64,000 bases of DNA from Shigella phage ChubbyThor. The notes under the pieces were generated by a model. That model did no database searches and was not told the DNA's origin. It saw only the letters and a program-made list of their open reading frames with translations. This document shows positions 38,340-64,000 of the stretch, one piece after another. Numbering within the stretch: the first letter of the stretch is position 1; each line of letters starts with the position of its first letter. Made by a program: the position numbers and the translations under genes. The stretch lies in sequence record OL615013; one strand, given 5' to 3'.

Positions 38340-39812
38340 TTAGTTCAAGGTATATTTGATCAGACCACAATTCCAAATCCTGACCAGCCCGGCTTCGGTT
38401 GCTAACTGGCTTTCTGTTTTGCCTTCTATGTCATAACCCATCCTAGCAAATGAATCTTTTCTGAAACCGAACTTGTGCTCACGCATAAATGTACCAGGCT
38501 TGTGATATTTGTAATCCGGCTTCTGTACTTCCTCTTCTATGAACCCGTGGGATAGGTAAATGTTCGACAGCCTGCTTACGACACACCTGTCGCCAAAAGA
38601 ATAGATTGGGACACCAACAAATTTCCTTCTGAAGTGCGATAGAAGTTTACTGAACGCCCCGTGGCAATCATTAGAGGCAAATCTGACTAATTCCAGGCCA
38701 TCTTTCCTTTTGGTAAACAACATCACAGCCTGTATCACACCAGCCTTATCAATTAGCGATAAGTGGTGGGTGGACGACACGGAACCTTGTATATGATGGG
38801 CGTCTAGAAACTCCCTCACACCGTTTATATTACCCCAAACAACTTTATGTTGGCGAGCGTATGAGACAGGCGTTTTAATGCCGAGTTTTGCCTTCAGAAG
38901 AGATTTGACCACATCCTGTTTCTCAGCCCATTCGTCTTCCCAAATATGGATCAACTGGATACCCTGAGATTCACACATTTCAGTCTTTTCTAGATGATAC
39001 CGTTTTTCTTTAAAAACTTCTGAATGCCAGTACAACCCATTGAATTCTATTGCAAGTTTGTGTTCCGGGCAGTAGATATCCAATTGTTTGCCTGACAATA
39101 TACTGTAATCAGAAACCTTGTTCACAACTCCTATTGAGGTGAGGAACTCGGATATTTCTTTTTCATAAGAAGATTTCTTATTCCTGACAGAACCATTGTT
39201 AAACAATGCACGTTTCAATATGATCGAGTTTTTCATGGGATTGTCAACACCATAACGTTCTTGTAATGTTATCAACGCCTTCTTCCTCACACCAGGTAGT
39301 TGTAGTGTAGAGCAGCTCCCATATTTGGATATATTTGAAGCCTCTATAGCTTTCCGACCAACCCCGCCTTTACACATAGAAATCTGATAACATTCTTCGG
39401 AACAATATGTTCTGTAATCTTTGTCATTGATGTAAAAGTTGGTTTCTTTGGAACACACAGGGCACATTTTCACGGTTCTATTGTGTAACCATGCTGTGAC
39501 TTTACAGGCCAGATCTTGTAGGGTGTTATGGGCGTTGGCAAATATCAACAGGTCCAATCTGATGTGCTTCATTAACAAATTAGATTTGCATTTCTGAATA
39601 TCCAATTTGTTGTTCTTAGTGAACATGTGTTTATGGAAAAATTGACGATAAGATTCTTCATCCGAAAGGCACGTCGCATCAGCAACAAATTCCGGTGATA
39701 GATTTTTCAATGTGTTGCTAGAAAACGTTTTACAACCATCTGAACAAAATTTCTTATCTTTCCTGGATGCTTTGAACTGTTCATGACAGACACTACAGAT
39801 TACCTGATACAT
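38340..39812 (-). CDS. putative freestanding endonuclease: N-terminal zinc ribbons plus Vsr/DUF559-like PD-(D/E)xK domain
   Basis: CxxC pairs (CSVCHE...CSDGC, CPVCSKE...CSEEC); LDIYCPEHKLAIEFNGLYWHSE matches Vsr/DUF559 core; AT-rich by eye; inserted beside gp23. Confidence 0.45.
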   Translation of the reverse strand: MYQVICSVCHEQFKASRKDKKFCSDGCKTFSSNTLKNLSPEFVADATCLSDEESYRQFFHKHMFTKNNKLDIQKCKSNLLMKHIRLDLLIFANAHNTLQDLACKVTAWLHNRTVKMCPVCSKETNFYINDKDYRTYCSEECYQISMCKGGVGRKAIEASNISKYGSCSTLQLPGVRKKALITLQERYGVDNPMKNSIILKRALFNNGSVRNKKSSYEKEISEFLTSIGVVNKVSDYSILSGKQLDIYCPEHKLAIEFNGLYWHSEVFKEKRYHLEKTEMCESQGIQLIHIWEDEWAEKQDVVKSLLKAKLGIKTPVSYARQHKVVWGNINGVREFLDAHHIQGSVSSTHHLSLIDKAGVIQAVMLFTKRKDGLELVRFASNDCHGAFSKLLSHFRRKFVGVPIYSFGDRCVVSRLSNIYLSHGFIEEEVQKPDYKYHKPGTFMREHKFGFRKDSFARMGYDIEGKTESQLATEAGLVRIWNCGLIKYTLN

Positions 39813-39918: not shown

Positions 39919-41250
39919 TTAAAACAGGCCTTTTATTAACCCTTTACGGAAGTAAGGGTTGCTGTCCTGGGCGATACCATCCGCAGTCACATAGACCTGT
40001 GGATCCTGGTTCTCTGGGATCTGAACGAATGGGTTAGCACAAATCCCGTAGCGGGTCTTGAACGCCATACGTGGGCTGAAGGTGGTTTCACCCTGGGTGC
40101 GGTACATTTCCAGCGGCACATACGGCGCGAAGAAGATACCAGCATCCAGCGCGGTCGCGCCTTTGTATGCCAGGGTGATGTACTCTGCTACTGCATACGG
40201 GTCGATGTAGACACGCATACCGTTAGACAGAACACCAGCGAAGGTCTGGCCAGTTGGGTCGATCGCCAGCTTGGTGTTTTCCTGCAGCGCCGGAGCGTAA
40301 TCCAGCATGCCGGACATTGCCAGAGCGGATGCTACGTTCGGAGAACACAGAACACGGTTGCCTTTACCACGACGGGTGTCAACACCGATGCCGTTCGCTT
40401 CAACTTCCAGCATGAAAGTCATGTACTTCCATTTTTCCAGCGCCCAACGACCGGAGATGTCAGTGGAGATGTCTACAACGCCGTTTGCGCCGAATTTTTT
40501 GAAGCGTACTGCGCTGAAGTTCATGGTACGGATGAACTCACGGTTCATTTCCGCCTGAATTTCAGTTACCATCACGTCGGACAGGATGCTGTCAACGTCT
40601 TCGCCGTGGATCGCCATCATGTCCTGGCGCAGTTCATGGCTGTAGTCAGCGTACAGGCCACGAGACTTCGCAGTCACGGTTGCTTTCTGAACGGTGATAC
40701 CAACACGCGCCCATGGGTTGGTGGTGGTGCCCAGCAGTTCAGCGTCGGTGGTCGGCATGCCTTTACCGATGGTGGTCACGCCAGCGCCGGAACCTTCGAT
40801 CTCGGCCTGAGTAAAGCCAGATGGATCGCCAGCCTGTACAGTACCGTCACCAGAGTAGCCGGAATCAGCTTCCTGCATGAACAGTTCTTTACGGGACTGT
40901 TGGGTGTTGGATGAGTCGCCGACGCCCTGGCGAGCACGCAGAGCAAAGATCTGACCGTCAGGACCAGACAGCGGCTGTACGCCGAAGAAGTCCATCGCGA
41001 TGTTGATCGGAGCCAGACGTTTTGCCATGTCGATCAGGACTGGCTGCCATTTGCCCACAGAGTTGTTCACAGAACCAGGAGCGTCAGATTCGCCCAGGTT
41101 TTTGGCGTTCCACTCAGCCTGGTTTTGCAGCAGGCGGACAGCAACGTTTTCGGCAGACAGCGGCTGAATCTGTTTGGACTCTTCGGAGAGTACTGGCAGC
41201 CACTCTTTGCGCATTTCTTCGGTAACAAGTTTCTTAGCCATGGTGGTCAT
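39919..41250 (-). CDS. 23: major capsid protein (T4 gp23-like)
   Basis: Recalled similarity to T4 gp23 (GVQPLSGPDGQIFALRA, AFKTRYGICANPF, C-terminal YFRKGLIKG); T4 late-gene order. Confidence 0.85.
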   Translation of the reverse strand: MTTMAKKLVTEEMRKEWLPVLSEESKQIQPLSAENVAVRLLQNQAEWNAKNLGESDAPGSVNNSVGKWQPVLIDMAKRLAPINIAMDFFGVQPLSGPDGQIFALRARQGVGDSSNTQQSRKELFMQEADSGYSGDGTVQAGDPSGFTQAEIEGSGAGVTTIGKGMPTTDAELLGTTTNPWARVGITVQKATVTAKSRGLYADYSHELRQDMMAIHGEDVDSILSDVMVTEIQAEMNREFIRTMNFSAVRFKKFGANGVVDISTDISGRWALEKWKYMTFMLEVEANGIGVDTRRGKGNRVLCSPNVASALAMSGMLDYAPALQENTKLAIDPTGQTFAGVLSNGMRVYIDPYAVAEYITLAYKGATALDAGIFFAPYVPLEMYRTQGETTFSPRMAFKTRYGICANPFVQIPENQDPQVYVTADGIAQDSNPYFRKGLIKGLF

Positions 41251-52788: not shown

Positions 52789-53001
52789 ATGCAAGTGGAA
52801 GACATCAAAGAAGTTCGCAGCGGTCGTCGCGTCCGAATCATCTGTGTGGATGCCAAGATTGGAGGCGGTGATTACGACATCGTCGGTCTGGTGAAGGAAG
52901 TGGATGGCACAGACTTCATTGAGTGGTGGAACTCCAAAGACAAGACCGAAGACGGCCTGCTGCGTGGTAGTGGCAACGGAAACCTGGATTTGAAAATCTA
53001 A
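52789..53001 (+). CDS. small hypothetical protein (70 aa), plus-strand gene inside the late block
   Basis: ATG with GAGGAA SD 6 nt upstream, followed by terminator hairpin at about 53005. Confidence 0.5.
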   Translation: MQVEDIKEVRSGRRVRIICVDAKIGGGDYDIVGLVKEVDGTDFIEWWNSKDKTEDGLLRGSGNGNLDLKI

Positions 53002-54391: not shown

Positions 54392-57300
54392 TTATGCCAG
54401 AGCAATCAAACGGAAATCTTTGAATGATGGCGGCGCTGTACGGTTGCCTCTCACCAGCAGGCGGATCTTCAGGCCAACGAAAGGATTGGTGCTGTCCACA
54501 GTCTTGTCATATTCGTATTCAAAGAATGTAGAACCATCGTTGACCAGAGGGGATGTTGGAGTCACGGTTTCCCATGCGACATCATCCATCTCCTGACCAG
54601 CGCGGAGCAGTTTCACCTGTACAGTCATTGAAGACTGAGAAGGCAGCATCGCACCGAAGTATTGCTTCAGGGTGGTGCAAGGGTTATCGAAGCCGATATC
54701 CTTGGTCACATAACTGAACACGTCTTCAAACGGATCCACCCCGTAGGTGTTGAAGATGACAGTGAAATCATCTCCATCGATCATCGGAGCCGTGTACACG
54801 TTGCTTTCGTTACGCGTCATTGTCGCCCGCACCTGGAAGTCACCCACTTGGCGATAGATGCCTTCCGTCGGCAGAGACACGTCCGTATCGGATTCGAACT
54901 CAGCCCAATCAGAGAATGAGTTGGAGGTCGCATCGCGGTAACGGTATTCCAGTTTCAATACAGATCCTTCCAGGGCTGAATTGGTGACGCTTGCGTAGAA
55001 CATGTCTACCAAGTAGTTGCCCAGGAAAGAAGCCTCTTCACCACCAATCTGCCCGTCGGAGTCGGCGTTGGAACTCAGAACAAATTTGAACGTCGTGAAC
55101 GTCGCGTCTGTCACAGTGTGTTGGGCGTTCAGTTGCTCAGGAGTGAAACCACAACCACCCGTCAGACCAGACAGGGTAACACTTTCACCCGCAGTCAGGC
55201 CATGCCCCGGCGCGTACACTGTAACAGTTGAAGAACCGTTGACACATTTCACGGTGTTCAGACCCAGAGGGCGGATCTTCGGACCGACTTTAGCATCGAA
55301 GGTCACGATGTTTGAACCAGCGGAGAAGTTACAGCGATACACACGGAACTTCATATCGGCAGTCTGGTTTGGAGTCCAAGTCGTGCCGTTGGAAGACGTG
55401 AAGAACACGCCAGTGTACGGCTGCTTGGCGATGTACTCGTTGGTCAGCAAGTTCTTTTTGCCCATCTCTGCGATGTATGCGTTGTAGTCCTGAGTGTTGG
55501 CCAGGAGCACGATCGCGAACTCAGTCTGCGCCTGCAGATACACAGGATAATCAAACTTGAACATCGTTGGTACAGAAGAGTCTGTGGAGACGGAAACTTC
55601 TGATGGGTTCAAAGTCTTACGAGTGACCACAGTCGTCGCAGGCAGGCCATTACTCATCTCACGGATTTCCAGAGTAATCGGGATATCACGGGACTTGGTG
55701 GAGAAGAAGACTTCAATCCCTTCGATGTACTCACCACCAATATTGGTAGCAACCATGAAGGATTGAGCAATCGGGTCTTTCCACTTCGCAACTTCAACCG
55801 TCTCCGTTTTGTTTTCGGTGGACTTGGTCGCAGTGTAACCCAGGACGCGAGTGTTGACATAGGTCTTTTGAATGCCCTGTTTCTTACCGAAGGATTTGTG
55901 AACCGCTTCAGCATTGGTCAGGGTATCATCAGCAGACTTGCTGTCCACAGGGCTGTCAGTCAGACGGAAGACGTTGTCGCCCGTGTTGAACTTAACAGTC
56001 TCGTTCTGAGGCACTGCGAACACGCCTTTGATATTACCGTTGGCATCAGTGTTCAGCGCGCCACCCAGTACGCCACCACTTGGAGTACAGTACGCGCTCA
56101 CATCACGCCCTGAGAAGAACGGATATACACGAGTGAACGGACGCAGGCCTGTGGCTTCGAAGTTGATGTTCGTTTTGCGCATGTATGGAATAACCTGCGT
56201 TTCAACGATCTGCTCGCCAGTCAGGGTAGTCGTCGTCTTGTCGGTGTACGTGTACGTGGTGACGTCACGGGTAGACACAGTCGTGCGGTAGCGGTAGCCC
56301 CACCATACGCCGCCTGCGCCATGTGGTTCCCACACACGCTCAGACACAGACACAGTACGCCATGTGCCATACACAGAACCTTCTTTGATCGCGCCGCGTG
56401 TGTTGATCGTTTCGTTGATCACACGTGGAGCAACATAGTAGTTCTCGAACCAGTAGTCGGTGGTCGGGTTCAGCTTCAGGAAACCTTCCCAGTTGAATAC
56501 CGCATATGGGTTCACGTTGATGGTCGTGGTCGCATAATCCTGGCGCACAGAGATCTCACGGGTGTAGTTGCATACAACCATGCCATCCTGAACGTTGTTC
56601 CAGCCTACTGGCGTCAGGTCAACCGCATTCTGCTGAACGAACGGGCGTAGGCGACCATTGTCAGTATCGATTGAACCTACCCAGTCAGCAGACAAATCGT
56701 CGATCAGACGGAAGTCTTTGAACGGGTCGGCAGCGATACCGTTTTTGAAGCGCGGGTTGCCAGTGATCGGGTCGAACACCTGCTGAGTCATAGCTGAAGA
56801 TTCCAGCTGTGACAGTGAGGTGTAGTATTCAACATTGGAGATACGGGTCTCCAGTTTACCGATATCACGCATCGTGTAACGACGGTTGTCGATGGTACGA
56901 ATCTGAATATCGTCGATGTTGGCCGTGTAAGGCGGGATCATCAGTTCGTACAGACGCATGCCGTTGTCTGGGATCGCAGGCGAAGCCAGGTTGTTGGAAC
57001 TCACACCACGCGCCACATTGAACACGCCGTTGTCGGCCAGATACACAGCATCAATACGAGGCAGGTAGTACTCCGCATCGAGGACGATAGCAGTGTTCGG
57101 GCGAACCATATCAGTGTCGGAAGCGCCGCTGGTGATCTTAGGACGGAAGTCCAGGCAGTCTGCCAGGCCATACACAGTACCAGAACTGGACGAAACATAG
57201 TTCGGAATGTCTGGGTAATCGATGGAAGAATAGGAATCCGCTGTGAAGAAATCACCAGAGCTGTGAGCGAAATACTGATACACCACCGTGAACGTCCCTG

Positions 57301-59230
57301 AAATGGCTCCAGTGCCCGATAACAGGTTAGAACGATAGTATGCAGCATCACGCTGGCCGCCGTCCAGAGTGAAGTTAGAGGTGACGTCAGCGCCACTTGC
57401 ATTCTTCACGCTGACCAGCTTGTAGCCGTCGTGGTTGTTCAGCTGTACGCTGGCCGCCGAAGTGAACGTCACAGTCTCGGTGACTTCGGTAACAGTCTTG
57501 GTCTTGATCGTCGCTGTGGTGCGGACCATCAGTGCCAACAGGTTGATAGACTGGTTGGCGTACCCCGCACCCAGGGAAATCTGCAGTGCTGAACCGACCG
57601 GAGTACCAGTCAGGGACAGTCCCGAAGAGATATCAAACTGAGCTGCAGTGCCGTCTGCCTTCGCCGCTGAGTACAAAGAGAATTCAGGGCTGAAGCTGTA
57701 ACCCAGAGGAGCAGAGATAGAGCCTGCGCCTGCCGCGTTCAACGTGATCTTGTTTGACCGCAGGACGGTGTAGTTGATGTCGATGGTCCCCGTAGGAGCC
57801 AGCGTCTTCACACCAAATACAGGCAGAGGGAAGATCAGGTCAATTGCTGAACTCTGGCTGAACTGATTAGACTCCAGTTCGCAAGAGAACATTGTTGTAC
57901 CGCTTTCTTCGTATGCAACTTTGGTGACAGTACCCATGTCCCCAGTGACAACGAGGTCGCGCATATACAGACGGAATTCCGCTCCAGAACGTTCTGCTGA
58001 AATCAGGAGGGCAGTGGCCTGGACAGCGCTGGATGCGTTCAGGAACTTGTAACGGATTGTGCGAGAGACAACCGGAACCCCTTTGGAGTTCTTGGACACC
58101 AGATAGTTGCCAGTCGCAACAGCCACAGGGTTGTTGTTCAGGGTATCGGTGTCACGGGCTTTATCAATAGTGACCAGCTCTTCGCCGAGGTTTTCGATAC
58201 GACGGCCACGAACGTAGGAGATCCCTGGCTTCATGACCGCCACGAATTTGCTTGCGTCACCACCTTCGGCAGGAGTATAAACGCCACCGTTGTTGTTCTG
58301 TTTCAGATGTTCACGCAGGTCGATCTGATGAGTGGAGACGTTGTAATCCCCGTTGGTCTCATAAGTGCGCTGCGCCATACTGTCTTCGAGGATGTTGTAG
58401 GTGGACTGGGTCACCATGGACTGAATGCGCCCATCTTTGACTTTCGCCAGCTCTACGAAGTCCGCCACTTCTTCATCATAACCGAAGCGTGACAACACCA
58501 GGTCCACGCGGAAACGGTGCGCGCCAGGGGCTTTGGAGTTTGGCGTTCCCTGAGCATTGGAGAATAGGCTTTCATCTTCTACTTCAGTGACGATGGTCTC
58601 TGTTACTTTGAAGCCCACCCGGTGTGAAGTAGAGTTGGAAGCGTTGTCGACGATCAGAGTTGCTGGCTCAACGTCCAGGAACATACCGCGGACGAAGTAA
58701 ACGCCTTTGGTCATACGAGCAACGATAGAGCCACCCACAGTCGCAGCAATACCATAACCGATACGAATGAAGTTATCGTTCACATCGTAGGTGTTGAAGT
58801 ACAGGTTGTCGCCGACGCCAAAGCCGTCAGATGAACCACTTTCAGTCATCTCGAGGATAGCGTACATCGTATCCGGTTCTGAAACATAGCGCTCCAGGGA
58901 CAGCACACGCGCCTTGGCGTTGTTGTCTTTGCCCAGGACGTACAGTTCTGCAATGTTCTCCAGGTCGGTGAACTCGGTGCCGCCAGCCAGAGTGAATTTC
59001 ATAGACACGGCTGTATTGGTGATTGTCAGGCCACCGGGGATAACCATCGAACCGTCTTTGAACAGATGGTTCCCGAGTTTCTCCAGCTGATCCTGGAAGA
59101 TGGTCTGCATCTGGTTCAGTTCACGGGTCTGAACTTTGATAGGAGCCGGACGAAACAGGATGCGTGAAAAACGCTTCTCTGGATTCCAATCATCCCAGTA
59201 TGGGCGGCGGTTGAGGTTCATTTCTTGCAT
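54392..59230 (-). CDS. very large virion structural protein (about 1612 aa), likely tail/baseplate or fibre component
   Basis: Single long ORF in late block; start moved to ATG at 59228-59230 (MQEMNLNRRPYWDD...); Thr/Ser/Asn/Gly-rich beta-type composition. Confidence 0.6.
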   Translation of the reverse strand: MQEMNLNRRPYWDDWNPEKRFSRILFRPAPIKVQTRELNQMQTIFQDQLEKLGNHLFKDGSMVIPGGLTITNTAVSMKFTLAGGTEFTDLENIAELYVLGKDNNAKARVLSLERYVSEPDTMYAILEMTESGSSDGFGVGDNLYFNTYDVNDNFIRIGYGIAATVGGSIVARMTKGVYFVRGMFLDVEPATLIVDNASNSTSHRVGFKVTETIVTEVEDESLFSNAQGTPNSKAPGAHRFRVDLVLSRFGYDEEVADFVELAKVKDGRIQSMVTQSTYNILEDSMAQRTYETNGDYNVSTHQIDLREHLKQNNNGGVYTPAEGGDASKFVAVMKPGISYVRGRRIENLGEELVTIDKARDTDTLNNNPVAVATGNYLVSKNSKGVPVVSRTIRYKFLNASSAVQATALLISAERSGAEFRLYMRDLVVTGDMGTVTKVAYEESGTTMFSCELESNQFSQSSAIDLIFPLPVFGVKTLAPTGTIDINYTVLRSNKITLNAAGAGSISAPLGYSFSPEFSLYSAAKADGTAAQFDISSGLSLTGTPVGSALQISLGAGYANQSINLLALMVRTTATIKTKTVTEVTETVTFTSAASVQLNNHDGYKLVSVKNASGADVTSNFTLDGGQRDAAYYRSNLLSGTGAISGTFTVVYQYFAHSSGDFFTADSYSSIDYPDIPNYVSSSSGTVYGLADCLDFRPKITSGASDTDMVRPNTAIVLDAEYYLPRIDAVYLADNGVFNVARGVSSNNLASPAIPDNGMRLYELMIPPYTANIDDIQIRTIDNRRYTMRDIGKLETRISNVEYYTSLSQLESSAMTQQVFDPITGNPRFKNGIAADPFKDFRLIDDLSADWVGSIDTDNGRLRPFVQQNAVDLTPVGWNNVQDGMVVCNYTREISVRQDYATTTINVNPYAVFNWEGFLKLNPTTDYWFENYYVAPRVINETINTRGAIKEGSVYGTWRTVSVSERVWEPHGAGGVWWGYRYRTTVSTRDVTTYTYTDKTTTTLTGEQIVETQVIPYMRKTNINFEATGLRPFTRVYPFFSGRDVSAYCTPSGGVLGGALNTDANGNIKGVFAVPQNETVKFNTGDNVFRLTDSPVDSKSADDTLTNAEAVHKSFGKKQGIQKTYVNTRVLGYTATKSTENKTETVEVAKWKDPIAQSFMVATNIGGEYIEGIEVFFSTKSRDIPITLEIREMSNGLPATTVVTRKTLNPSEVSVSTDSSVPTMFKFDYPVYLQAQTEFAIVLLANTQDYNAYIAEMGKKNLLTNEYIAKQPYTGVFFTSSNGTTWTPNQTADMKFRVYRCNFSAGSNIVTFDAKVGPKIRPLGLNTVKCVNGSSTVTVYAPGHGLTAGESVTLSGLTGGCGFTPEQLNAQHTVTDATFTTFKFVLSSNADSDGQIGGEEASFLGNYLVDMFYASVTNSALEGSVLKLEYRYRDATSNSFSDWAEFESDTDVSLPTEGIYRQVGDFQVRATMTRNESNVYTAPMIDGDDFTVIFNTYGVDPFEDVFSYVTKDIGFDNPCTTLKQYFGAMLPSQSSMTVQVKLLRAGQEMDDVAWETVTPTSPLVNDGSTFFEYEYDKTVDSTNPFVGLKIRLLVRGNRTAPPSFKDFRLIALA

Positions 59231-59264
59231 TTTGATGCTCCATCGATAGGTGCCATTATAGAGA

Positions 59265-59271
59265 TATTTAG
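59265..59271 (-). promoter_or_regulatory. CTAAATA late-promoter-like motif upstream of the large structural gene
   Basis: minus-sense TACTAAATATC about 35 nt upstream of ATG 59230. Confidence 0.4.
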
Positions 59272-59300
59272 TATACAGCCAACCGAGGAATAGAAAGAAA

Positions 59301-59322
59301 AAGCCCCTCATCTGAGGGGCTT
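59301..59322 (-). terminator. intrinsic terminator after tailspike-like gene
   Basis: AAGCCCCTCA / TGAGGGGCTT inverted repeat; minus-strand RNA continues UUUCUUUCUAUU. Confidence 0.65.
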
Positions 59323-59328
59323 TGTCTA

Positions 59329-61113
59329 TCAAGCGGAAGCATTCCATTGGCCAGCATTGATCACCCATGTGCTCGTTACTTTTGAATACACCATTTTCAC
59401 GAGATTCATTTTCGTGGTGGCGGTGTTAGCGCCAGTCACATCAACAGGGACACCCGCTATGCTCAATGAAGCAATGTTTGAACCTCTCAGTAAAAACGTC
59501 AGCTCCATACCATCATATGGCGTACCAGTAAATGCGATGTTGGAACCAGAAGAAACGTTTCTTCGATAGCACCCATAACCGCTGTTTATGTCGACAGAGT
59601 CAGTTGTGAGCTGTAATGGCAATTTTCCACGACTTAGTTTACATGCCGTTACAACGCCGAGATCATCAATGCCTCGACTTGCACCCCAACGTGCGATGTT
59701 GACTATGTGGCCAGTCACACCAGCGTCTTGCGCACCACCAATGTCGAAGAAACCTCCAGCCCTTGTACCCCATATCGGCTCATCAATCAAGCTGTTGGTG
59801 GAGCCAGTTACACTATAACCATGTGCGAGGGTTCCTTGGCTTGGAGAAGAGTGTGTACAATCTCGGAATGTAGCATCTTGAGAACCACTGATGCGGACAT
59901 CAGAGATACTATTGTTCTCGTAATACATTCCATATACCTTTGTTCCCTTGGCCTGATCCAAGAAACCATACTTCGTGGTATTCTGGCTGAACCCGTTAAC
60001 AAAACAGACTGCTTCTGTGGGGAATGTTGTGGTGTAATCCCAAGAGGTCCCGCCGTCGGTGGAGTGTCTTACGATAATACCATAATCTGGCATATCCACT
60101 TCTGGTGCACCGGAATAACCGTCAAATCCTGTTATCACAATAGCATTGGCACCGTTCTGTACTATTAACCGACTAGAACCAGCCCCGCCGCCGATAACCT
60201 CGCAACCGTCTATTTTCAAACCGTAGCACAAAGTCCCTATCTCTATCCCGACATTATTAATGGCCGTCCCCATGTCTACCCACATCATATCCAGATGTCC
60301 ATGGTTCCTCCAATATTTGGCTCTGAAAGCGACGCAACCCGTTTTACCATTCAATGATATTCTGATATTGTGTAATTTGCAGTTTCTCACTGCATTGCCA
60401 CCAGAACGGGAAGGGTCAATCGTGAGAACACCGACATTATTTCCACCAGCCAAGAATAATGCACCGGAATGTGCATAAATTTCAGAGTTAGGATAAAACG
60501 CCAACGCCTGGCCAGTTACCGTATAGTTGCCAGGAAGAAACTGGAATGTCCCACCCTGGGATAATTTAGTTTGTATAAGAGACTGAGACATCGAAGGGTC
60601 GATGACAGTTAGACGATAAAACCCAGAGTATAACTCATCTCTCAATGCATCTGGATCCAATTTCACCCAGTTAGAACTTGACAACCCACCAGTATTGGCA
60701 ATGGTGCTCCCAGCATTTACAGATTTGGGTAAAGTACCACCCCAACGGTAAAGGCTTGTACCATCAGAAACGACTTCATTTCTAACACGTATCGTGAACC
60801 CCGAATCGAAGTTTTCGACCAAAGTTACAAATTCCTTCCGAAGCACTGCAAGAACCCCCAGGTCTACAGTGCCCGTATTGTGTACGAGAATGCCGTCTGT
60901 CAGGCTGGTGATGGTAGCGCCAGCGGGCAGGTTGGAAGGCAGTGCATAGGAGCGCTGAGTGACCTTATCGTAGATCACCTTGTAACCAGTCAGGGTGGAT
61001 CCTGGTTTAGCATAGAGAACCTCAGACTTCTTGCACCCAAACTTACGAGCAATGGAGTCTTTGTTTGTCTCCTTAGAGACAGAGCCTTTCGGCTGTGAAA
61101 ATTGCGGATTCAT
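59329..61113 (-). CDS. tailspike-like protein with right-handed beta-helix region (putative depolymerase)
   Basis: Repetitive G/N/V/I-rich segments (NAVRNCKLHNIRISLNGKTGCVAF ... GIEIGTLCYGLKIDGCEVIGGGAG) typical of pectate-lyase-fold tailspikes. Confidence 0.6.
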   Translation of the reverse strand: MNPQFSQPKGSVSKETNKDSIARKFGCKKSEVLYAKPGSTLTGYKVIYDKVTQRSYALPSNLPAGATITSLTDGILVHNTGTVDLGVLAVLRKEFVTLVENFDSGFTIRVRNEVVSDGTSLYRWGGTLPKSVNAGSTIANTGGLSSSNWVKLDPDALRDELYSGFYRLTVIDPSMSQSLIQTKLSQGGTFQFLPGNYTVTGQALAFYPNSEIYAHSGALFLAGGNNVGVLTIDPSRSGGNAVRNCKLHNIRISLNGKTGCVAFRAKYWRNHGHLDMMWVDMGTAINNVGIEIGTLCYGLKIDGCEVIGGGAGSSRLIVQNGANAIVITGFDGYSGAPEVDMPDYGIIVRHSTDGGTSWDYTTTFPTEAVCFVNGFSQNTTKYGFLDQAKGTKVYGMYYENNSISDVRISGSQDATFRDCTHSSPSQGTLAHGYSVTGSTNSLIDEPIWGTRAGGFFDIGGAQDAGVTGHIVNIARWGASRGIDDLGVVTACKLSRGKLPLQLTTDSVDINSGYGCYRRNVSSGSNIAFTGTPYDGMELTFLLRGSNIASLSIAGVPVDVTGANTATTKMNLVKMVYSKVTSTWVINAGQWNASA

Positions 61114-61143
61114 GTGAATCTCCTGTTGTTATTCTCAATGGAA

Positions 61144-61161
61144 AAGCCCCCGAAGGGGCTT
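61144..61161 (-). terminator. terminator hairpin between the two tailspike-like genes
   Basis: AAGCCCC / GGGGCTT stem with CGAA tetraloop. Confidence 0.5.
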
Positions 61162-61164
61162 AGC

Positions 61165-63870
61165 TTAGTTAACGGAATCGAGAGAAGAAATCAATTTCAA
61201 ATTGATCTGTACCTGAGACTCCGCAGTTACAGCAGGAATAGCCAGACCACCAGCATTAAGCCCAAAATTCGCAATAAAGCCAGTAGTTGAAGATCTCACT
61301 ACGTCAAATCCTGTACCGCCTGAGCCGGTGCTTGCAAATTGAGTCTGCTTAGCACCGAAAGCATCACCCGTACCAGCTATTGCTACTTGCCAAATACCAC
61401 GGAATAACGTAGCCGCAATATTAGCTGCCGCAGCGCCAGCAGCACGAGTGATCTTCATGTTGTCGTAGAACCAGACTTCCTGAATTGTAGCAATGTTACG
61501 AGCACCGAAACTAACAACTTGGTTCCCTTCAAAGCTGTAGTTAGTTCGGTTATCAACAACAAAATCACATAACATACAGGTCTGGGTAGACACATTAAGA
61601 TCTAAGGTATTTCCATGTGCAATGAGTGACTTAGGAATACCTTGTACGCGGAAACCCGCAGAACGGTATGTAAGATTCAACGTATTTAATTGCTTGATAC
61701 TGTTAGCCATCAGTTTCACACGTTGACCTCGGTATACCATAGTGTTAGCTGCACCTGCGTTAACAATAATACCTTCGGCATTGTTATTAAGCGTATCGCA
61801 CTTCAGCACTACAGTATTATGGCTAATATCAATATCCTGGAACACAGCATAAGTTGCATCCCCTGCTCCGGTACTGATTGCAACACCATCAAAAGCTCGG
61901 AGTTCGCAATAGTTATTATTGATTTTAACAAAAGGATCTGGGTAAGTAGCCTGGGTTGCTTCACCCCCACCACCAACATCAATGCTCCTTGTATACTTGC
62001 CTCCAATTAACAAACCAGTAGTAAAACTGGCAGGTATGTTACGAGAACGCACATAGTTATTGGAAATGATTAAGTTATAAGGTTCATAGTTCGGTGCCCA
62101 ACCCGACCCACATTTAGCATAAATACCTACAACACCATGTTCTAAACACTGGTTATTGGTAATGATCGCCTGACCGCCACCGTGGAAGTCAATACACTTA
62201 CGGCGACAGTTACGAATCATGTTTTCACTGATGGTTACATTACGAATGCGGCGGTTACGTCCATGCGTGATTCCGTAACCAGGATCGTAACTGGCATTCA
62301 GGGTATCATCACCATTCGGGTGACCAATATCTTCAATGTTATTTCCCAGATAAACTAAGCGATAACCAGACAACACATAAATTCCTGCACTGTAACAGTT
62401 ACGAATGTAACACTTGCTTACCATCACACCATCTGGAACATCAGATTCTGTGGTGTAGTCGGCGCTACCGTAAGCTACGGCTGCATTACGGATACCAATA
62501 CCTACAGCACCATAGTTAAAGCCTGTGATGCGGCAACGATTGATTAAAATGCCACGACAAGCACGCTGAACTTTAATACCACAAGCCCAGCTACCGATGT
62601 AACCATTTAAGAACTCACCCCATTTGTTCTGCCAACCTGCTGCTTGGGATCCATCAGCATTATAATTAGGGAATTGTCCTTGAGTACCGTCATAAGCACC
62701 ACTGGTATAGTTGCTGGTATCAAGCCCATTATTAGGTGCAAGTACCATAGCGCTGTCATACCCGAAACGCTCTTCGCCTTTTTCAGCATAACCAGTAGTA
62801 ACATCGATAGCAGGAAATACACCTGGCCCCTGAATTGCTAACTCTACAGTCACGTTTTCACAAGCAATAAGCGCAAGTGCATCCATACCGTGAGTTTTTA
62901 CAATTAAAGTACCGTTGTAAATTTTGATGTTCTTCTTGCCTACTAAAGCCAAGCAAGGACTAAAGTTGTGAGTACCGTCAGAAAAATCAGGTTCAGATGG
63001 ATATTTAGTAGCCAAGTCTGGATTTTTACTGATCAGGTACGTACCACCATAGAGATTAATATCTCCAGTGGATGCATCAAAATAATTTTGAAGCGCTTTA
63101 GTATCATCAGCCTGACCATCAGCTTTTGCTTTAAAATCTTTAGGGCTTAAGTTCTCATTGCCTTTATCCTGGATAGTACGTGCTACCGTATCCGCACCAG
63201 GGGCTTTGTAGCCAACTAAAGATGAACCTGTAGATTTGGCTAAATCTGCACGAAGGGTGTCATCTACGCTTTCTAAAGCCTCATTAATAGTGTTAAGTTC
63301 TTCCTGTACCGTGTTACCGGAAGTTGTACCAATCAGACTTGCGCCTCCATCGGAAGAGAGCGCCAGGTAATTCTGTTTGATGGACATCTCAGCCACAACC
63401 CAAACACCAGCAGCCGGAGATCCATTCAGGAACGACACCACACCAGTCGTTCTGTTGTAGGTGTAATCAACCCCAGGAACCTGGAACTTCCCGTCAATGT
63501 GCAGAGATTGTACACCATATGTCGTGAAGTCTGGGGTGAATGAGGTCTCGCTGCCAACTGCCTGGAACTTGTAGATGCGAATCCCGTTTTCATAATCTTC
63601 TGGTGACAGGATCTTGTCAAATAGGCAGTAAACGACGTCATCTGCTTCAAGAGATCGACCGAGGTTGACTGTGTTCCCATCGATTTCATAGTTGTCAACA
63701 GGAACCTGGACGCCGCCGTTGATGGTGATGAATCCCGTAACAGGATAGAACGGGAGGGAGATAAACGTCTCTCCACCCGTTGCTGTGTAAGTGTATGGAA
63801 TCTGGTGCGGGGCTGTTACAACCGCTCCAAAGATGCTCTCGACGTTTCTGGTCATTTGAAGATACCCCAT
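61165..63870 (-). CDS. tailspike-like protein with right-handed beta-helix region (putative depolymerase)
   Basis: PbH1-like repeats (IRNCYSAGIYV, ISENMIRNCRRKCIDFHGGGQAIITNNQCLEHGVVGIY, IISNNYVRSRN); 901 aa. Confidence 0.6.
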   Translation of the reverse strand: MGYLQMTRNVESIFGAVVTAPHQIPYTYTATGGETFISLPFYPVTGFITINGGVQVPVDNYEIDGNTVNLGRSLEADDVVYCLFDKILSPEDYENGIRIYKFQAVGSETSFTPDFTTYGVQSLHIDGKFQVPGVDYTYNRTTGVVSFLNGSPAAGVWVVAEMSIKQNYLALSSDGGASLIGTTSGNTVQEELNTINEALESVDDTLRADLAKSTGSSLVGYKAPGADTVARTIQDKGNENLSPKDFKAKADGQADDTKALQNYFDASTGDINLYGGTYLISKNPDLATKYPSEPDFSDGTHNFSPCLALVGKKNIKIYNGTLIVKTHGMDALALIACENVTVELAIQGPGVFPAIDVTTGYAEKGEERFGYDSAMVLAPNNGLDTSNYTSGAYDGTQGQFPNYNADGSQAAGWQNKWGEFLNGYIGSWACGIKVQRACRGILINRCRITGFNYGAVGIGIRNAAVAYGSADYTTESDVPDGVMVSKCYIRNCYSAGIYVLSGYRLVYLGNNIEDIGHPNGDDTLNASYDPGYGITHGRNRRIRNVTISENMIRNCRRKCIDFHGGGQAIITNNQCLEHGVVGIYAKCGSGWAPNYEPYNLIISNNYVRSRNIPASFTTGLLIGGKYTRSIDVGGGGEATQATYPDPFVKINNNYCELRAFDGVAISTGAGDATYAVFQDIDISHNTVVLKCDTLNNNAEGIIVNAGAANTMVYRGQRVKLMANSIKQLNTLNLTYRSAGFRVQGIPKSLIAHGNTLDLNVSTQTCMLCDFVVDNRTNYSFEGNQVVSFGARNIATIQEVWFYDNMKITRAAGAAAANIAATLFRGIWQVAIAGTGDAFGAKQTQFASTGSGGTGFDVVRSSTTGFIANFGLNAGGLAIPAVTAESQVQINLKLISSLDSVN

Positions 63871-63898: not shown

Positions 63899-63976
63899 TG
63901 ATAATGGATATCAGCCGGAACCGCCACCTTGAGAGAATAGATCTTTCATACCACACCTCAATTTTATTCTAAGAAT

Positions 63977-63996
63977 AAGCCCCCATTTGGGGGCTT
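63977..63996 (-). terminator. terminator hairpin at right window edge
   Basis: AAGCCCCC / GGGGGCTT 8-bp stem, loop ATTT, A/U-rich flank. Confidence 0.5.
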
Positions 63997-64000
63997 AGTT

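Follow-up and report, generated by a model that had tools for sequence, protein, structure and literature searches.

The stretch of DNA analysed here, 64,000 nucleotides (nt) of the genome of Shigella phage ChubbyThor (sequence record OL615013) and hereafter called the window, carries two consecutive tailspike genes on its minus strand. The first, tsp1 (59329..61113, minus strand), encodes 594 amino acids (aa), and the second, tsp2 (61165..63870, minus strand), encodes 901 aa as annotated. Exact-sequence look-up of the two open reading frames (ORFs) identified the products as ChubbyThor gp207 (UGO47145.1; subtype TSP1-24) and gp208 (UGO47146.1), which are labelled ‘putative tail protein’ and ‘putative tail fibers protein’, respectively, in the database. 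The complete genome comprises 159,319 bp; the phage was isolated on Shigella boydii, and plating on S. Typhimurium and Citrobacter freundii has been reported. It is concluded with very high confidence that the two genes are tsp1 and tsp2 of a phage of the genus Agtrevirus, family Ackermannviridae, and that each product joins a conserved N-terminal assembly module to an exchangeable C-terminal right-handed beta-helix body. The identity, domain architecture, fold, synteny and mosaicism of TSP1 and TSP2 can be read directly from the comparisons given below. The locus itself is already known, as spikes of this kind are well studied, the genome is deposited and it has been discussed in the literature.

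An earlier note, made from the letters of the window, had described two consecutive beta-helix tailspike-like proteins at this place. The ORFs lie at the coordinates it gave, and Pfam, AlphaFold2 and Foldseek agree with the description. The note had also drawn attention to a pattern rich in G, N, I and V. Among the 46 ORFs of the window with at least 200 aa (mean G+N+I+V content 0.253, standard deviation 0.037), the 901-aa protein ranks first (0.335) and the 594-aa protein second (0.320), so the compositional cue is real.

The T4-type neck and tail neighbourhood was recognised correctly as well. At 34-58 kb, the nucleotide sequence of the structural region shares 97-98% identity with that of the Agtrevirus phages Ag3, SKML-39, P46FS4, SW16-7 and MK-13, and the gene order is the one annotated in Ag3 and MK-13: gp15-like, gp14-like and gp13-like neck genes, two small genes, VriC, TSP1, TSP2, TSP3, TSP4 and the baseplate. 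A pair of prophage-derived or non-phage beta-helix enzymes was considered and rejected on the basis of this identity of the flanking structural genes. As in Ag3, MK-13, Gloob and P46FS4, tsp1 is the first gene of the cluster and adjoins the VriC gene, and tsp2 follows it directly. All that the window shows of the next upstream gene is what looks like a stop codon, with a terminator hairpin (63976..63997, minus strand; fold −17.1 kcal/mol, z −3.3); this gene stands at the TSP3 position by synteny with Ag3 and MK-13 and corresponds to ChubbyThor gp1. Since the annotated relatives have clusters of four and the window ends at 64000, the two tailspike genes are the first two of a standard Ackermannviridae tsp cluster, usually of four genes, that is cut by the window edge. 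In the T4 map, genes 9-12 and wac precede genes 13-15, and the tsp cluster occupies roughly the place of the T4 gp10/gp11/gp12 region, in keeping with the gp10-like domains of TSP2 and TSP4.

TSP1 is effectively the same protein as the TSP1-24 spikes Ag3 orf207 and MK-13 gp198 (98.5-98.7% identical over all 594 residues), which are annotated as ‘hypothetical protein’ in those phages. It also matches phrog_20656 over its full length (E 7e-276), a PHROG labelled ‘unknown function’. Its first 163 residues (60625..61113, minus strand) are assigned to the anchor of tandem-repeat domains TD1/TD2 that is found at the N-terminus of Ackermannviridae TSP1. This assignment is based on Pfam Tail_spike_N (PF18668; aa 94-151, E 1.5e-13) and on matches to sequences in PDB, namely Gp48 of the Shigella flexneri phage B2 (9d84, E 7e-47) and G7C gp63.1 (4qnl, 1e-44) over aa 1-163/175, CBA120 TSP1 (4oj5, 3e-43; aa 1-175) and CBA120 TSP3 (5w6f, 9e-42). 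In this family, TD1/TD2 of TSP1 docks onto the XD3 domain of TSP4 (PMC11414711). The remainder of the protein (aa 165-594; 59332..60621, minus strand) is the receptor-binding body, for which no Pfam, NCBIfam or PDB sequence match was found. An AlphaFold2 model built from 57 sequences has a mean predicted local distance difference test score (pLDDT) of 83.8, with most blocks from aa ~170 to ~410 at 85 or above. In this model the body forms a right-handed beta-helix, as in other Ackermannviridae TSP1 proteins; each of its roughly nine rungs (aa ~170-445) has three short strands, and from there to aa 594 the C-terminal region is mainly beta-stranded.

TSP1-24 is the only spike that Ag3, MK-13 and ChubbyThor have in common over its full length. 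All three phages were isolated on S. boydii, MK-13 on type 1, and the S. boydii O-antigen is therefore, tentatively, the most likely target of TSP1. Gloob makes this reasoning less secure, as it infects S. boydii in the absence of TSP1-24, carries a 38% identical relative of the TSP1 body in its TSP2 and shares its TSP3 with Ag3. A 99% identical TSP1-24 was also found in independent assemblies of ~158 kb (runs ERR7888517, ERR7888520 and ERR7888521). The only place where the whole cluster of such an assembly is visible is contig L006 (416-9905), in which TSP1-24 stands beside a different TSP2 of 837 aa, followed by spikes of 686 and 964 aa; TSP1-24 therefore circulates with varied partner spikes. 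The assemblies bearing this TSP1 (P0036) were considered as ChubbyThor-like phages, and this was rejected beyond TSP1, as their TSP2 differs.

The probable true start of TSP2 is Met6 at 63855, giving 896 aa, since both the orthologues and PDB 6w4q begin with MTRNVE. The N-terminal module (aa ~1-170 in the 896-aa numbering; 63346..63855, minus strand) resembles the gp10-like XD2/XD3 region found at the N-terminus of Ackermannviridae TSP2. Using phmmer, residues 6-204 were aligned to full-length CBA120 TSP2 (6w4q residues 1-198; E 2.4e-73), and the first 194 residues are 93% identical to TSP2 of P46FS4 and 88% identical to TSP2 of Ag3; weaker matches were found to the gp10-like branching domains 9k4a and 7y22. 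The gp10-like XD module builds the branched spike complex of this family (PMC11414711). By these matches, the N-termini of TSP1 and TSP2 appear to be different assembly modules, a TD1/TD2 anchor in the former and a gp10-like XD module in the latter.

The typing of gp208 has been a matter of disagreement. In a study published in Viruses in 2024, gp208 was classed as another TSP1 (‘TSP1-22’; 70.46% over 74% of the protein), gp1 was typed as TSP2 (36% identity over 26% of the protein), and TSP3 was reported to be lacking in ChubbyThor (PMC10892097). According to that typing, the phage has two TSP1 proteins, no TSP3 and three spikes. It draws on the C-terminal 74% of gp208, which is 70% identical to P46FS4 gp5, the occupant of the TSP1 position. 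However, the N-terminus of gp208 matches CBA120 TSP2 from residue 1 and is shared with the TSP2 proteins of P46FS4 and Ag3, as described above; it lacks the TD1 sequence with which TSP1 proteins begin (MNPQFSQPKG...), the gene is second in the cluster, and the body falls under the 75% identity threshold that separates subtypes (PMC8432352). The paper on phage AV101 also names gp208 tsp2 and states that Ag3 tsp1 is similar to ChubbyThor tsp1, and that ChubbyThor tsp2 has a receptor-binding domain similar to Gloob tsp1 (PMC10791037); both statements agree with the present comparison. A second TSP1 is thus considered highly improbable. From N-terminus and position, gp208 is best described as a TSP2 scaffold whose body is TSP1-22-like and stays under the subtype threshold. 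The ‘missing’ TSP3 is probably gp1. The N-terminus of Agtrevirus TSP3 begins MNPQFNQPKGSTAKEINKNP, and a homology search for ChubbyThor gp1 with the Ag3 TSP3 N-terminus yielded no candidate. No match was obtained either when viral contigs were scanned for the exact pattern of the edge terminator at 63976-63997, or when the two spikes were looked up on contigs as exact proteins.

The receptor-binding body of TSP2 (aa ~230-896; 61168..63168, minus strand) consists of an N-terminal cap, a long beta-helix and a C-terminal domain. It was recognised by Pfam Beta_helix (E 7e-13), it is mostly modelled at a pLDDT of at least 85, and Foldseek aligned it with the tailspikes of HK620, Sf6 and Det7 (E about 1e-8), with K64-ORF41 and with GH110 and GH28 enzymes. 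TSP2 thereby has the C-terminal beta-helix body of an Ackermannviridae TSP2, and the check proposed in the earlier note, structure prediction and comparison with known tailspikes, came out as beta-helix for both bodies. The podoviral tailspikes of P22, HK620, Sf6 and Det7 share the right-handed parallel beta-helix; they differ in their virion attachment module and show no detectable sequence identity to the proteins of ChubbyThor where their structures have been solved. NCBIfam holds no family for either TSP1 or TSP2.

Relatives of the two bodies are found fused to other virion adaptors, including the P22 head-binding domain (PF09008), the T7-tail domain (PF03906) and Tail_spike_N. Most of these relatives are on genome contigs of Enterobacter hormaechei and E. 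coli, where they are probably prophages. Among the phages of the collection, spikes of LS2 and Peacock, two E. coli phages with genomes of ~39 kb, share 76-78% identity with the TSP2 body, and Enterobacter phage BUCT554 shares 70%. The relatives of TSP2 point to Enterobacter or E. coli serotypes as the receptor source. Within the Ackermannviridae the best identity of the body is only 69-70%, to gp5 of the Salmonella phage P46FS4 (70%; TSP1-22) and gp165 of the Shigella phage Gloob (69%). In both of these phages the body is carried on a TSP1 (TD1/TD2) scaffold in the first position of the cluster, whereas in ChubbyThor it is carried on a TSP2 (XD) scaffold in the second. The reverse is seen in Gloob, where the relative of the ChubbyThor TSP1 body is placed on TSP2.

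A near-identical TSP2 body occurs outside the family. Using blastn, nt 515-2706 of the tsp2 gene, i.e., from nt 515 to the stop codon, were aligned without gaps over 2192 nt and with 95.3% identity to the gene of a metagenomic 940-aa spike (P0001, on contig L005), and from the junction onward the proteins are ~98% identical. The N-terminal ~165 residues of the metagenomic spike are unrelated to TSP2. Contig L005 belongs to an N4-like podovirus, a short-tailed phage of another virus family with a ~76 kb genome, related to Enterobacter phage vB_Ecl_SABI and Kosakonia phage Kc283. The Agtrevirus-type conservation of tsp2 spans nt 1-578 of the gene, so that 64 nt (gene nt 515-578; 63293..63356, minus strand) are common to the Agtrevirus TSP2 N-termini and the N4-like spike. 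As the two matches overlap there, 63293-63356 is likely the recombination joint, and the TSP2 body appears to have been recently exchanged with a podovirus that is N4-like and of the Enterobacter/Kosakonia phage type. The lower GC content at 60-64 kb (0.45 vs about 0.50 elsewhere) is consistent with imported modules. In the podovirus, the spike is part of a receptor module of three genes (L005 1433-7419), which encode a 240-aa Cap_depo protein, the 940-aa spike and a 793-aa spike with Tail_spike_N and WcaM. This arrangement suggests a G7C-like branched spike pair, comparable to the gp63.1/gp66 system.

As it falls below the 75% threshold to any family member, the TSP2 body may be an uncatalogued Ackermannviridae receptor-binding subtype. 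Taken further, the proposal would be that this subtype was exchanged very recently with an N4-like podovirus and may open to ChubbyThor a host so far unrecognised, such as an O-serotype of Enterobacter or Citrobacter, and that ‘two TSP1, no TSP3’ is a typing artefact, gp1 being a TSP3 with a novel body. We hold this combined proposal no more strongly than its opposite.

The earlier note had also suggested that tandem tailspikes recognise different surface polysaccharides and determine the host range. This is supported by precedent, since the tandem tailspikes of this phage family are experimentally established host-range determinants, each for a different O- or K-antigen, in CBA120 and AV101 (PMC10791037, PMC11414711), and both the assembly model and the degradation of O-antigen have been demonstrated for these two phages (PMC11414711, PMC10791037). 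By analogy, TSP1 and TSP2 of ChubbyThor would trimerise. TSP2 would join TSP4 through its gp10-like XD2 domain, while its XD3 domain would be offered as a dock for TSP3, and TSP1 would dock via TD1 onto XD3 of TSP4. The outcome would be a branched, star-like complex at the baseplate that allows one virion to use several polysaccharide receptors. Each beta-helix body would bind, and probably cleave or modify, one specific O- or K-antigen, so that several spikes could start infection on several serotypes.

It is conceivable, though rather unlikely, that the action of one spike or of both stops at binding the polysaccharide or at modifying it, e.g., by deacetylation, and does not extend to depolymerisation. 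The translucent zones produced by characterised Ackermannviridae tailspikes reflect O-antigen degradation (PMC10791037), and invariant acidic residues are kept in the helix of both families (E305, E399 and D405 in TSP1; E358, D466, D472 and D556 in TSP2). Both observations speak against this possibility.

Some points weigh against this explanation of the two genes. The window does not extend to the TSP3 and TSP4 positions. The AlphaFold2 model of the N-terminal ~200 residues of TSP2 is unreliable (pLDDT < 50), because the alignment, built from homologues of the body, is thin there; the XD domains are therefore assigned from sequence. The trimerisation, complex assembly, enzymatic activity, receptor specificity and virion localisation of gp207 and gp208 are carried over by analogy from the CBA120 and AV101 literature. 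Finally, mass spectrometry of Ag3 virions (six bands) identified VriC and TSP4 and did not identify orf207 (PMC3121705). This last result, together with the ‘hypothetical’ annotation in Ag3 and MK-13 and the PHROG of unknown function, would fit a TSP1 that is vestigial or not incorporated into the virion. Such a protein would not be expected to keep an intact frame that is 98.5-99% conserved in ChubbyThor, Ag3, MK-13 and several independent ~158 kb assemblies with different TSP2 proteins, nor to have a complete TD1/TD2 anchor and a confident beta-helix model. We consider a vestigial TSP1 very improbable and retain the reading of both genes as parts of the tsp cluster.

Among the closest known systems is the branched TSP1-TSP4 complex of the Kuttervirus CBA120 (PDB 4oj5, 6w4q/5w6p, 5w6f/6nw9 and 5w6h). 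The position of the cluster, TD1/TD2 in TSP1, the gp10-like XD in TSP2 and the body plan of the beta-helix are alike in the two phages. The receptor-binding bodies, on the other hand, are unrelated in sequence (10-19% identity in structural alignments), and the receptors therefore differ.

The bodies of Ackermannviridae tailspikes are the main predictors of host range and are the parts that are swapped in phage engineering. The correct typing of the scaffold, as TSP2 and not as a second TSP1, is important for predicting the assembly of the complex and the junctions that are usable for swaps. That an N4-like podovirus carries a 95% identical body clearly exemplifies receptor-module traffic between a myovirus and a podovirus. 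Current understanding is left unchanged; the value added by the correction of the scaffold type and by the near-identical N4-like body is an annotation-level refinement of a deposited genome.

With regard to expression, the earlier note had given each gene its own terminator, which holds for one of the two. An intrinsic terminator was called by the terminator scan after tsp1 (59300..59323, minus strand), with a 10-bp stem, a T-tract and a fold of −22.3 kcal/mol (z −5.65); none of 200 shuffled sequences was as stable. Between tsp2 and tsp1 there is only a weak hairpin (61144..61161, minus strand), which has a 7-bp GC stem, a UUCG loop and a short T-run (fold −12.6 kcal/mol, z −1.5). This hairpin was not called by the same scan; it is also present in MK-13 and is probably a leaky terminator or attenuator. 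With nothing stronger than this behind tsp2, tsp1 may be partly co-transcribed with tsp2. An AGGAG ribosome-binding site (61120..61124, minus strand) lies 6 nt upstream of the tsp1 ATG, and Ag3 and MK-13 carry the ribosome-binding block AACAACAGGAGATTC unchanged.

The downstream border of the cluster is formed by the gene for the virion protein VriC/DUF4815 (54392..59230, minus strand; 1612 aa; Pfam DUF4815, E 5e-60), whose orthologues in Ag3 (orf206) and MK-13 are 4839 nt long. The Ag3 orthologue was detected in virions by mass spectrometry (PMC3121705). An alternative ORF of 1658 aa that overlaps tsp1 (59231-59368) was rejected as a longest-ORF artefact from an upstream ATG; since the orthologues have 1612 aa, the start of VriC is placed at MQEMNL (59230). 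The 98-nt gap between the VriC gene and tsp1 holds the tsp1 terminator and a sigma-70-like site before the VriC gene (59255-59282; TTGGCT, a 16-nt spacer and TATAAT). Near its C-terminus, VriC has a weak match, under the cutoff, to Pfam Phage_spike_2 (E 0.0014; aa 1397-1467 of the 1658-aa ORF).

Two further ORFs of the structural region are worth recording. A 70-aa ORF on the opposite strand (52789-53001, plus strand), between the gp14-like and gp13-like neck genes, has no Pfam match; it is conserved in Ag3, MK-13, Gloob and P46FS4, where it carries the label ‘hypothetical’, and the Ag3 annotation shows back-to-back terminators beside it. A 490-aa ORF (38340-39812, minus strand) directly adjoins the gp23 major capsid gene (39919-41250). 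It has weak matches to the endonuclease families Vsr, DUF559 and REase_MTES_1575, coincides with a dip in GC to 0.416 at 38-40 kb, and is probably a homing-endonuclease insertion, as which it is annotated in related phages.

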